A stretch of DNA of 64,000 bases from Halorutilales archaeon Cl-col2-1 (GTDB lineage: Archaea; Halobacteriota; Halobacteria; Halobacteriales; Afararchaeaceae): contig CP169074.1 of assembly GCA_041891055.1 (NCBI GenBank), positions 672,001 to 736,000 on the forward strand. The letters run 5' to 3'. The notes under the pieces are model-generated. The model ran no database searches, was not told the DNA's origin, and saw nothing but the letters and a program-made list of their open reading frames with translations. This document shows, in pieces, positions 10,076-63,570 of the stretch. The position numbers and the translations under genes are program-made. Positions within the stretch are counted from its first letter, which is position 1. Each line of letters starts with the position of its first letter.

Positions 10076-10500
10076 ACAATTGAGTTTTCTTAAGAGAAGT
10101 TTATAACTTATGATAGACGGTTAGGAAAAACAGAACGACAGAACGGGTACTTACCGATGCCACCCCTTTCCACCAGTATAGTACAGCCTATAAGACAGGG
10201 GTCGCGTAAAAATACCTGTCCCTTCTACATAAGATACTACACTAGTAGTCGTACTATACAGCCGCCGTGTCGGGCATCTCGTGTCTCCGTATCAGGTAGA
10301 ACGCGCCCGTCAGAACACCGAGGAGGAGAGCGTACGCTGCAGCTGTGACAAGGGCGTCGGTGGGAGTAGCGTACTTGTCGGCGCGGTATGTGATGATCTT
10401 CCGTCCTATGGCTATCATGCCCGATACGACGACTATACGTATCACAGGCTCGTCTCGGCTGTAAGCTACGACAGTCGTCAACCGCCTCGGGGTCAAGCCC

Positions 10501-10551
10501 CGTCCCGAGAGCTTTGCTCTCGCGGGCTCGCAAATCGAAGATTTGCGAACG
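10501..10551. repeat. Double-hairpin micro-element, copy 1
   Basis: CGT-CCCGAGAGC.TTT.GCTCTCGCGGG-C-TCGCAAATC.GAA.GATTTGCGA-ACG; splits the IS end hairpin GCCTCGGGG..CCCCG/AGGC. Confidence 0.75.
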
Positions 10552-10574
10552 AGGCTTGTCAGTGGACTCCCGCT

Positions 10575-11804
10575 CTATCCGAGCAACTCGGAAGGCGTGT
10601 AATCGCCGTTCGCGTTCAACGTCCCTGACTTGAGGGCCAGTTGACTGGTGGCCCGTCCAGCACCAGACTTGAGCCAGTGCTGAACAAGACGCCACCCAAT
10701 GTTTCGGGCAGCATTATAGTCGGAGTGCAGTTCCTTCCCACACTTCAGGCACTCAAACTCGTCACCATCACGGTTGTCCTCGTGCGTGAATCCGCACTCG
10801 CCGTGACTGCACCGCTGCGACGTGTACTGCGGTGCAACGTCATCCACATCGATACCGTACTCTTCGGCCTTGTATTCGACGTGGCGTTGGAGTTCGCGGA
10901 ACGCCCACTGCTGGAACTTGCTGGCGTTCGAGATGCGTTCGCGGATGTGCGTCAGGTTCTCGAACGCAATCGCCGTGCAGTCGTTCTCCACGGCTTCCTG
11001 CACAATCGCTTTCGAGACGCGGTGGAGGTAGTCCGCACTCCACCGAGCGAACCGTGAGCCGATACTCTTGATGGTGATGTGCGCGGAACGAGTGCCTGTC
11101 TGTTGCAGGTTTCCGCGACGACGTTCATACTCGTCACGCTTGTGGTTGAGATAGTCTGCATTGCCGAGGAACGCTCCCGTGCTGGTGACCGCGAGGTAGC
11201 TGTCCACGTTCAAGTCAACGCCGAGAACCACTCCGTTCTCGGTCGATTCGTCGCTAGAATCAGCGGGTTCGACTTCTTTCTCGACTGCGACGTGGAGGTA
11301 GTACGTGCCGTCACGCTTGTGGAGTGTTGCTTCCTTGCGTTCCCACTCTGGCGTCCAATACTCCGCGAAGGGTGTCCCCGCGTCGTCTTCGGGCGTGACA
11401 AACTCGGCAGTCACGCGGTCGCCAACCGTGGCGAGCGTTACGTGGTCGTCGTGATAGGTGATGGTACGCCCATTGTACACGACAACTGAGCCTCGGAACT
11501 CTGGCTTGCTGGCTTTCTTACCGTCGTCAAGGATGCGGTCTTTGCAGTTGCCGAGTGCGTCGGCGGCGAGGTTTCGGGCAGATTGGACGAGACTGGATTG
11601 TAGATTTGTCTGCTCCCGAACGTCGGTGTAGGTTTGGTCGTGGAGCGTGTTTTTGGTGTCCTCGATTTCTGTAGGGTCGTCACTCCATCCAGCGTCAGCG
11701 ACGTGTTGGGCCGCTTGGCGGAATTGCTCGAACGTCTCCTCGAGAACGCTGTGAGCGTCCTCGGGAACGTCGAGCTTTAGCTGGATGTTGCGGACGACCT
11801 CCAT
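10575..11804 (-). CDS. tnpB: TnpB RNA-guided endonuclease
   Basis: RuvC residues GVDLN, FENL and SDYNAARNI; YTSQRCS..CG / CLKCG zinc ribbon. Confidence 0.95.
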   Translation of the reverse strand: MEVVRNIQLKLDVPEDAHSVLEETFEQFRQAAQHVADAGWSDDPTEIEDTKNTLHDQTYTDVREQTNLQSSLVQSARNLAADALGNCKDRILDDGKKASKPEFRGSVVVYNGRTITYHDDHVTLATVGDRVTAEFVTPEDDAGTPFAEYWTPEWERKEATLHKRDGTYYLHVAVEKEVEPADSSDESTENGVVLGVDLNVDSYLAVTSTGAFLGNADYLNHKRDEYERRRGNLQQTGTRSAHITIKSIGSRFARWSADYLHRVSKAIVQEAVENDCTAIAFENLTHIRERISNASKFQQWAFRELQRHVEYKAEEYGIDVDDVAPQYTSQRCSHGECGFTHEDNRDGDEFECLKCGKELHSDYNAARNIGWRLVQHWLKSGAGRATSQLALKSGTLNANGDYTPSELLG

Positions 11805-11921
11805 ACTTCATTAGTATGCTTGGAGATACTTAAGAGTATTTTTCGGGCGTGGGAGAGTCGGCCTTGCCATCGTGTGTGGTTTGTGTCATCGAGTGTCGGC
11901 TTCCTCCCCGACCTCAAGGAT

Positions 11922-11996
11922 CGTTCGCAAATCTTCGATTTGCGACTGTAGCCAATCAAAGATTGGCATACCCACGAGATCGAAGATCTCGGGATG
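11922..11996. repeat. Double-hairpin micro-element, copy 2 (inverted, with an extra nested hairpin)
   Basis: 11922-11945 is the exact reverse complement of 10528-10551; the second hairpin is homologous with a compensatory change; GCCAATC.AAA.GATTGGC lies between them. Confidence 0.75.
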
Positions 11997-12343
11997 GGGT
12001 ATCCGCCTCGCTATCTCTATGAAGAGGAGGAGCGCTGTGTCTATCAGACCAACGACCTCACGTGCCTCTGTGATACGTCCTGTACGGGCTAGCTCGACTA
12101 TCGAGAGTCCGAAGTCGAAGACACCGACGCCAAACAGAACGACAAGCACCCCCGCGGTTACGAGTTCTAGCCACCTCATTACCTCCTCTAACTTCTCGGC
12201 GAAGGTCGCCTCGTGGAAACGTCGGAGGAGTCTGTCACTCTGCATAGCTTCGGGGCACGTGTAGGTACAGCCGGGTTAAGAAAGCTGTGTGACCAGGGAC
12301 AACGTACTGCAAAGCACAAGAGGTTCGAACGGCTCTCTTCTAC

Positions 12344-62943: not shown

Positions 62944-63570
62944 TCACAGACGCGACATAATCTCAGATCGGCAGTCGTCGGCGACTTCGTTGACGGGTCG
63001 TGAGGCATCGACTACGACGAACCGCTCATCGCTAGATGCGATACTCATATAGTTGTCTCTGACCCTCTCTAGGAACTCGGTTCTCTCGTACTTCGCCGTC
63101 GCATGGGTTCTTTCGACCGCTGTCTCGGGATCTACGTCCAGAAGGAGGGTGAGATCGGGATAGACTGTCCAGCCATCGTGTACCGACCGTATCCATTCGA
63201 GGGGAGACTCAACTTTCCCCTGAAGCGAGACAGCCTGGTAGGCGAGACGTGAGTCTACGTATCTGTCGGAGACGACGAGTCTTCCGTCTTCTAGAGCAGG
63301 TTCGACGACAGAGTCGACGTGGTCGGCGTGGTCGGCGACGAATAAGAAGAACTCCGCCATCGGAGAAAGCTTTCTTTCGCCCTCGACAGAAGAGGTAACC
63401 TTCTCTCCTATCCAAGAGTCGGTGGGCTCCCGTGTGAAGACGGCGTCACAAACCTTCGGTTTGTGGGGTGCAGACGTCTCGCGTTTGCAACGTTCTTCGA
63501 AATACTCCGAGAGACGTCCTACGACAGTAGACTTCCCCGAACCGTCTATGCCTTCGATGCTCACGAGCAT
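62944..63570 (-). CDS. tmk: Thymidylate kinase with a 16-aa insertion
   Basis: EGIDGSGKST, TREP, SDRY, PDLTLLLDV. Confidence 0.93.
   Translation of the reverse strand: MLVSIEGIDGSGKSTVVGRLSEYFEERCKRETSAPHKPKVCDAVFTREPTDSWIGEKVTSSVEGERKLSPMAEFFLFVADHADHVDSVVEPALEDGRLVVSDRYVDSRLAYQAVSLQGKVESPLEWIRSVHDGWTVYPDLTLLLDVDPETAVERTHATAKYERTEFLERVRDNYMSIASSDERFVVVDASRPVNEVADDCRSEIMSRL
63444..63492. repeat. Double-hairpin micro-element, copy 3 (in frame within tmk)
   Basis: CGT-CACAAACC.TTC.GGTTTGTG-GGG-TGCAGACG.TCTCG.CGTTTGCA-ACG. Confidence 0.65.

Follow-up and report, generated by a model that had tools for sequence, protein, structure and literature searches.

The 64,000-nt stretch of the genome of Halorutilales archaeon Cl-col2-1 analyzed here (hereafter, the window) belongs to a haloarchaeal genome of 2.06 Mb on four contigs, whose proteins are acidic and whose relatives fall within the haloarchaeal order. 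At window positions 10477 to 12018, on the minus strand, lies an IS1341-type insertion sequence, that is, a tnpB-only transposon of the IS200/IS605 family. This element is 1542 bp long, of which 122 bp are secondary inserts that split the near-terminal palindromes at both ends; its limits were set by an empty orthologous site in a congeneric genome (G001) and by the ends common to four sister copies. Its tnpB open reading frame (ORF; 10575–11804, minus strand; 409 aa) is intact and matches the Pfam families Cas12f1-like TNB (4e-22) and OrfB_IS605. The element has the attributes of the IS1341 group: a tnpB gene with RuvC and zinc-ribbon domains, subterminal palindromes at both ends, no target duplication, and insertion 3′ of a short target. 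The palindromes are alike at the two ends, with TCAAG loops. We examined the inserts within them, which point to a family of mobile hairpin pairs dispersed throughout this genome.

Read on the plus strand, the right-end palindrome starts with the 5′ arm GCCTCGGGG (10484–10492), the loop TCAAG, and the first 5 nt of the 3′ arm, CCCCG (10498–10502), so that this first part occupies 10484–10502. A segment of 47 nt (10503–10549) separates it from the displaced last 4 nt, AGGC (10552–10555). The 47 nt are bordered by CG dinucleotides (10501–10502 and 10550–10551), and the net gain relative to the sister copies is 49 nt, or 47 nt plus one CG; the alignment gap places it at 10501–10549 or, given the CG repeat, equally at 10503–10551. 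This insert comprises one hairpin pair. Mini-hairpin B (10504–10526), CCCGAGAGC-TTT-GCTCTCG(CG)GG, contains a 2-nt bulge and was recovered by sequence, census, and fold. Mini-hairpin A (10526–10550), GCTCGCAAATC-GAA-GATTTGCGAAC, is a 25-mer found in the census, with identical copies at three further loci of this genome and two loci of G001. At the left end, the first part of the palindrome, CCCCGACC-TCAAG-GATCG (11906–11923), is parted from its final GGGG (11996–11999) by 73 nt, which sister alignments place at 11923–11995 or, with a 1-nt ambiguity, 11924–11996. This insert, inverted relative to the other, contains three mini-hairpins: A′ (11925–11945; repeat search and census), which has the sequence of A in inverted orientation; GCCAATC-AAA-GATTGGC (11951–11967; census); and B′ (11973–11993; census and fold), CACGAGATC-GAA-GATCTCGGG. 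The middle module recurs elsewhere with an A-type partner, and a strain-specific insert of 48 nt in G001 includes it. A repeat search identified the inverted relationship of the inserts as 31-nt arms of 94% complementarity (10528–10558 and 11915–11945), including 24 identical bases. All of the features that the initial annotation of this DNA had described at both ends were found in place, among them the compensatory change in the second hairpin, which reads GAGAGC/GCTCTC in the right copy and GAGATC/GATCTC in the left.

C(GNA)G DNA mini-hairpins are extraordinarily stable. Single-stranded DNA folds predicted for both ends and both strands had z-scores between −4.4 and −5.2, and none of 200 shuffles was equally stable. 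The fold predicted for the right end is a three-way junction, as had been anticipated; the anticipated outer stem of CGT paired with ACG is exceeded by a longer one, CAAGCCTCGT/ACGGGGCTTG on the tnpB strand, because bases of the transposon are recruited.

The state of these ends before insertion is preserved in the four sister copies, which are located on contig C2 of the same genome (89.6% identical over 1375 nt), on Natrinema pellirubrum pNATPE01, on a Natribaculum breve plasmid, and on a Halapricum desulfuricans plasmid. The right-end palindrome, GCCTCGGGG-TCAAG-CCCCGAGGC, is uninterrupted in all four. The left-end palindrome, CCCCGACC-TCAAG-GGTCGGGG, is whole in the C2 and Natrinema copies and takes variant forms in the other two, and none of the four has an insert there. 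Because both palindromes are free of inserts in every sister, this comparison identifies both window inserts as secondary insertions (49 nt net on the right, 73 nt on the left), as the initial annotation had proposed. Many tnpB right ends in this genome do contain hairpins, as would be expected if hairpins were an ordinary, ancestral part of transposon ends and of the omegaRNA scaffold. Given the empty and intact palindromes of the four sisters, together with an Rfam scan of 10300–12200 on both strands that returned no match at E values up to 1, that explanation is hardly tenable, and we rejected it.

A BLAST search of the region against its own genome returned dozens of short matches to the inserts. 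Perfect hairpins with a 3-nt loop and a stem of at least 7 bp number 454 on contig C1, compared with 202 in a Markov simulation, whereas hairpins with 4-nt loops show no excess (214 versus 207 simulated). When one mismatch was allowed and closure by a C-G pair required (at least 7 pairs), 561 hairpins with 3-nt loops were counted genome-wide; the 510 on C1 compare with 176 in a first-order Markov simulation of that contig. The family itself consists of 279 C-G-closed mini-hairpins with loops GAA, GGA, AAA, AGA, or their complements (RRA/TYY). They occupy 169 loci (arrays), as 105 single, 38 double, 13 triple, and 10 quadruple hairpins, two arrays of six, and one of seven, so the further copies on which the initial annotation depended are abundant. 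The only other census match inside the window is a lone 19-nt hairpin at 63447–63465 (cacaaacc-TTC-ggtttgtg), which may be a chance occurrence.

Conservation of structure was assessed with the core ATC-RRA-GAT, all occurrences of which were taken, pairing not being used as a selection. There are 250, compared with 47 when the core is reversed as a control. At each of the four positions that follow the core, 73 to 76% of cases are Watson–Crick paired, with all four pair types represented, compared with 21 to 38% for the control. The 150 fully paired core matches contain 24 different 4-mers, and position 7 is characteristically unpaired. By this test, the stems vary in sequence while their pairing is kept, in agreement with the proposal that the family is conserved by structure. 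In addition, 111 of the 279 hairpins bear a CGTC or CGTTC tag on one arm and not the other; 81 arms have it at offset −12 from the loop, against a background of 8.8%.

The mobility of the family was examined by comparing array flanks with about 1.05 Mb of G001. Both flanks were found in the other genome for 50 of the 169 arrays here and for 50 of the 102 arrays in the compared part of G001. This yielded 14 clean filled/empty events, mostly relative to G001 and including the two window inserts and an additional comparison between paralogues. The events measure 49, 73, 48, 105, 45, 48, 97, 48, 92, 48, 47, 53, 45, and 49 nt. Left out were C1:259774 (about 190 nt, poor alignment), g1C5:49089 and g1C2:95396 (both ambiguous), and the 49-bp differences at C1:246233 and C1:1208170, which are better read as deletions in G001. 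Since a single pair of 45 to 53 nt accounts for 10 of the 14 events, the double hairpin is the usual mobile quantum, which upholds the unit originally suggested; the remaining events contain three or four hairpins. A multi-hairpin block of more than 80 nt is nearly identical at the unlinked loci C1:13700–13835 and C1:1726800–1726880, and at one of these loci it is strain-specific; blocks of several hairpins are thus mobile as a unit, too. Arrays also shrink: two 49-bp deletions between hairpin cores have left a hybrid imperfect hairpin in G001. On the evidence of these genome comparisons, the family is multicopy and polymorphic between congeneric genomes.

Direct repeats of 2 to 5 nt flank the junctions of 9 of the 14 events, and 7 of these repeats contain CG (CG, CG, CGTC, CGT, AACGT, CGTT, and TCCG). 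In one further event the repeat is a single nucleotide, and the other four lack any repeat; no target duplication of fixed length is present. The CG-containing repeats match the CGT(T)C tag of the element itself. Read in the other direction, the element is often found 3′ of CG(T)(Y), with ACG(T)(Y) as its own end. Such ends are the signature expected of cutting at the same short motif at the donor end and the target, and they are also compatible with microhomology-mediated copying. In the latter case, no dedicated transposition would be needed: the spread of pairs would result from template switching during replication, or from copying at microhomologies or gene conversion between palindromic sites, and their perfect stems would be regenerated by intrastrand repair. 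The variable junction microhomology (0–5 nt), the 49-bp steps in arrays with their hybrid hairpins from recombination between cores, and the failure of any transposase to co-occur with the family in our searches are all in keeping with such a process. We nevertheless consider it unlikely, given the discrete size of the unit, the conserved one-sided tag, the near-identical pairs and multi-hairpin blocks at unlinked loci, and insertion sites that resemble the donor over 5 nt at most.

The arrays are unevenly distributed. Within 1.5 kb of a match to the TnpB zinc ribbon, a zone that makes up 4.6% of the genome, lie 45 of the 169 arrays (about 6-fold enrichment), and 22 lie within 500 bp (1.5% of the genome). 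Of 31 tnpB right-end regions, 14 contain one hairpin or more, and paralogues differ in their number of hairpins. The suspicion that the elements exploit the ends of IS200/IS605-type transposons is thus borne out as an enrichment. Pairs also reside in frame within tnpB itself: in three paralogues (C1:129991–130015, 219449–219473, and 1844291–1844317), the same 48-nt pair occupies the loop of a coding hairpin, CCGAGAAC...GTTCTCGG, and lengthens the protein by about 16 residues immediately ahead of the GVDLG motif of RuvC, the ORFs remaining open. G001 contains a 45-nt in-frame insert in another tnpB.

Two other locations were observed. Hairpin pairs directly follow the 3′ end of tRNA-like sequences (GGTTCRAATCC...CACC) at C1:182067–182246 and in two genomes of another family (L008 of G027, about 1480–1530 and 1700–1750; L006). 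A multicopy element of about 1.1 kb (C2:71430–72510, C1:1299289–1300402, and C1:304556–305492; partial at C1:368602 and C1:1015999) encodes a 213-aa protein that we take to be a putative DDE transposase, and it has mini-hairpins near both ends as passengers; hairpins therefore enter other kinds of transposon too.

Several observations bear on the fate of an invaded transposon. Another tnpB transposon is present in two copies that are 95.1% identical over 1565 nt, with different flanks on both sides and an identical nested-hairpin right end; at the left end, a pair of 47 nt distinguishes the two copies. A transposon family encoding both TnpA and TnpB, with members 90 to 95% identical across genera (L085, L077, L078, L084, L075; L197, L198), exhibits a series of states of the end palindrome CCCCGCCC...GGGCGGGG. 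The empty state is 22 nt in one genome; the palindrome with one pair is 72 nt in three genomes and in Halapricum and Natronobeatus plasmids; with three pairs it is 168 nt here; and in one genome it spans 269 nt, with unrelated sequence in between. The search expression failed to match six of the 12 loci examined. Because this one family shows empty, one-pair, and three-pair palindromes, the sequences suggest that pairs hitchhike between genera inside transposon ends.

The ORFs beside the 31 tnpB right ends, 14 of which have hairpins, are mostly full-length, and invaded ends are probably not always dead. In the window, TnpB is identical to its C2 sister at 383 of 410 residues, and codon differences comprise 89 synonymous and 27 nonsynonymous changes; by these counts, the intact gene is under purifying selection. 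RNA fold prediction converts the 9-bp terminal stem of the omegaRNA scaffold into a multi-branch junction and leaves the rest of the fold unchanged. Because the inserted hairpins fold alone and spare the remaining scaffold, the insert would behave as a tolerated passenger rather than a certain knock-out. In public sequencing data, no run contained half of this stretch, and RNA runs contained at most 0.07 of its words.

These results also bear on a proposal made by Dyall-Smith et al. (PMC3119063) for the SMR-A elements of Haloquadratum. In the account given there, such elements are a weapon of the host against IS200/IS605 transposons, and by extension the hairpin pairs would be aimed at end palindromes to disable recognition by TnpA. 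The enrichment of arrays near tnpB would follow, as would the splitting of the right-end palindrome, which in the predicted fold is out-competed by an alternative 10-bp stem. Yet transposons with hairpin-laden ends have reached new sites and crossed genera, and the adjacent tnpB genes are intact, with that of the window under purifying selection; moreover, most arrays lie outside transposons, and in-frame pairs leave the tnpB ORFs unbroken. We judge a defensive role improbable.

The genome encodes 33 TnpB matches and a single Y1 transposase, TnpA (C1:979011–979418). The tnpA gene is divergently paired with a tnpB, and a hairpin array is present on one side only, after the gene, nested in the end palindrome; this TnpA is an ordinary transposon gene. 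The expectation of tnpA or RAYT genes flanked by such hairpins was therefore not borne out: no RAYT-like gene was identified, and TnpA was rejected as a RAYT-like partner since it is not codistributed with the hairpins. A 25-mer pattern for the family has 34 matches here and 24 in G001; of 301 sampled genomes of the order, 14 contain it. It is concentrated in three small families and absent from the large ones, and the reversed control gave zero matches everywhere. In the other pattern-positive genomes, pairs again occupy tnpB right-end palindromes, the same coding hairpin of tnpB, and positions directly after tRNA genes. Scanning all species genomes with the pattern yielded at least 107 stretches, where about 70 are expected by chance, and was uninformative except for several haloarchaeal assemblies with repeated matches. 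BLAST of the 55-nt right-end insert against plasmids produced no match at E values up to 0.01, and the 86-nt left-end region produced only two 21-nt matches, which led to the 72-nt palindrome state described above.

Together, these data favor the interpretation, to which we assign a probability of roughly 0.6, that the window inserts are two copies of one subfamily of a nonautonomous mobile element, the hairpin pair, that entered the end palindromes of a resident tnpB transposon. The unit is a pair of mini-hairpins of about 24 nt each, 45 to 53 bp in total. Each hairpin has a 3-nt loop, RRA on one strand and closed by C-G, usually with an A/T-rich AATC/GATT top and a mismatch near the foot; one arm is often flanked on its outer side by a CGT(T)C tag, and the tags of a pair face outward. 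At this locus, the transposon probably first interrupted the PsiE-family gene, with pairs then entering its left- and right-end palindromes. The pairs could move as single-stranded DNA, with cutting and joining 3′ of a CGTY-like motif at the element end and at the target, as in IS200/IS605 peel-and-paste transposition, and with an HUH Y1 transposase supplied in trans as the catalyst. Targets would preferentially be exposed DNA in single-stranded or hairpin form, of which the end palindromes of transposons are an example. If the hairpin-pair interpretation is correct, we give the combination of single-stranded movement and a Y1 enzyme acting in trans somewhat less than an even chance. From the folds, insertion would turn the right-end palindrome, the expected TnpA-binding site and also the last stem of the omegaRNA scaffold, into a multi-branch junction.

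A number of observations weigh against this interpretation or parts of it. Most arrays (124 of 169) are more than 1.5 kb from any tnpB. Of the 13 empty sites whose folding was computed among the 14 events, only 4 have a folding energy in the lowest 2.5% of random 50-mers, and the other nine are unremarkable; hairpin targeting is therefore a tendency and not a rule. A strict CGTY rule likewise fails, because of the four events with no junction repeat and the one with a single nucleotide. The initial annotation, which had the element target CG in extruded hairpins, is accordingly supported in part, by CG-containing repeats at 7 of the 14 junctions and by strong hairpin potential at 4 of the 13 empty sites. 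TnpA homologues 90 to 95% identical are encoded in genomes with zero matches to the 25-mer pattern, and a TnpA match is found in 6 of the 14 pattern-positive genomes compared with 155 of 301 overall, although several of the negatives are incomplete assemblies. A search for genes with arrays on both sides returned seven ORFs, three of them tnpB and the rest in repeated or array-rich DNA, among them the multicopy element with the putative DDE transposase; the search yielded no candidate enzyme. Loop orientation shows no bias along the chromosome and therefore gives no support for replication-strand coupling. Finally, what insertion does to TnpA binding and to the omegaRNA is a prediction from folds only.

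A bolder formulation casts the pairs as hyperparasites of IS200/IS605 transposons and as the archaeal equivalent of REPINs. In single-stranded form they would be excised and rejoined at CGTY, either by the Y1 TnpA of the transposons themselves or by an unrecognized HUH enzyme, and they would ride between genera in end palindromes and omegaRNA scaffolds. We regard this as doubtful but worth stating: if true, it would supply a candidate mechanism for the orphan CGTC-tagged REPs (repetitive extragenic palindromes) of bacteria and a source of natural omegaRNA scaffolds that tolerate inserted stem-loops.

The host transposon and its target complete the description of the locus. On the tnpB strand, the right-end terminus is GGTTGAC. 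The pentanucleotide TTCAT (12019–12023, minus strand; ATGAA on the plus strand), which resembles a target or transposon-adjacent motif (TAM), lies directly 5′ of the left end. ATGAA borders the left ends of the window copy and of three sisters out of four, the left terminus of the Natribaculum copy being unaligned, and is also present at the empty G001 site; beyond it, the flanks diverge. By analogy with established IS200/IS605 TnpB biology and from the element boundary, the omegaRNA guide would correspond to the host sequence that immediately follows the right end when the tnpB strand is read (10457–10476, minus strand). The interrupted PsiE-family gene, also on the minus strand, is divided into an N-terminal fragment (12019–12245; ORF list and G001 comparison) and a C-terminal fragment (10254–10476; Pfam PsiE, 3.1e-05). 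In G001, the flanks are 94 to 97% identical, the transposon is absent, and the gene is whole. The empty site (L002 4957–4974) contains 18 bp (six codons), between two CTTCAT repeats, that are absent from window 12019–12030. Either the transposon entered after one CTTCAT repeat and an 18-bp deletion followed, or the ancestor was different. The window copy (10457–10476 and 12019–12026) and the C2 sister (C2:112925–112933 and 114355–114362) have flanking bases in common beyond their ends, on the tnpB strand CTCTTCAT at the left and GA(C/G)TGTCGT (8/9 identical) at the right, whereas the three sisters in other genera have only TTCAT in common with these flanks. The shared flanks might stem from a target preference that extends past the TAM, from imprecise cleavage of the ends that took flanking DNA along, or from guide-related homing.

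Cas12 descends from TnpB/omegaRNA elements, which now serve as compact tools for genome editing. In this genome, a second layer of selfish DNA has repeatedly entered the structures on which such elements depend, often without destroying them: the TnpA-binding palindromes, the stem at the 3′ end of the guide-RNA scaffold, and, within tnpB itself, even a coding hairpin. The hairpin pairs would thereby mark positions in the omegaRNA scaffold that naturally tolerate extra stem-loops. The filled/empty comparisons define a mobile unit and its junctions, so that a mobilization described in 2011 as enigmatic becomes testable.

Among known systems, several are related to the hairpin pairs by features. 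REPINs consist of two inverted REPs that form one long hairpin and occur with a single-copy, REP-flanked RAYT gene (Bertels and Rainey 2011; PMC3116915). As they are described there, REPINs resemble the present family in that a palindrome doublet is mobile, structure is conserved, and high copy number is kept within a lineage. The hairpins are REP-like as short, imperfect palindromes at high copy with a conserved tag (279 hairpins, 111 tagged). They differ in lacking a single-copy, codistributed, flanked RAYT gene, the sole Y1 gene being a transposon TnpA linked to tnpB. The CGTC-tagged REPs found in five bacterial phyla (Di Nocera et al. 2013; PMC3733652) are reported to have 8- to 9-bp stems, 4- to 5-nt loops, and a CCA tail, and to form mostly head-to-head dimers. 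In common with the hairpin pairs, the published description gives them a tag outside one arm, dimers with outward tags, locations inside palindromes or in frame in genes, and no associated transposase gene. In contrast, the hairpins here have 3-nt RRA loops, an AATC/GATT top, a tag that is often CGTTC, no CCA tail that we could see, and a haloarchaeal host; the resemblance is one of features.

PATEs (palindrome-associated transposable elements), which are fused IS605 ends, are likewise short, noncoding, palindromic, and tied to IS200/IS605 biology; they make no target duplication, where the pairs show none of fixed length (PMC3119063). According to that source, they carry the transposon's own near-terminal palindromes and terminal oligonucleotides, whereas the present hairpins differ from the palindromes with TCAAG loops and insert into end palindromes rather than next to the TAM. 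The pairs do not fit the definition of miniature inverted-repeat transposable elements, which have terminal inverted repeats like those of a DDE transposon and a fixed target duplication, as no fixed duplication and no matching transposon ends were seen. Our literature search found no later paper on SMR and no description of 48-nt hairpin pairs in archaea.

The closest precedent is SMR-A of Haloquadratum walsbyi (HqIRS42, HqIRS43, and HqIRS55; Dyall-Smith et al. 2011; PMC3119063), with which the pairs were compared by description only. As characterized in that report, SMR-A elements are about 110 bp long with inverted ends and no target duplication, and they insert within near-terminal palindromes of PATEs and IS605-type transposons; their mobilization was called enigmatic, and a defensive role was proposed. 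Both SMR-A and the hairpin pairs are free of a transposase, frequent, bounded by inverted repeats, and strongly inclined toward IS605-type near-terminal palindromes, as exemplified here by both window ends and the 14 filled right ends. SMR-A has prominent inverted terminal repeats and is highly conserved within each type, whereas the hairpin unit is 45 to 53 bp with very variable stems, and its ends, though pseudo-symmetric (of the CGTC...GACG type), are short. The absence of target duplication in SMR-A is matched here only in that no duplication of fixed length occurs, 2- to 5-nt repeats being present at most junctions. Unlike SMR-A as described, the pairs form arrays, sit in frame in ORFs, and are located mostly outside transposons. 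The phenomenon is of the same kind as that described in 2011 for Haloquadratum SMR-A, here in a variant form for which unit, junctions, and distribution are defined.

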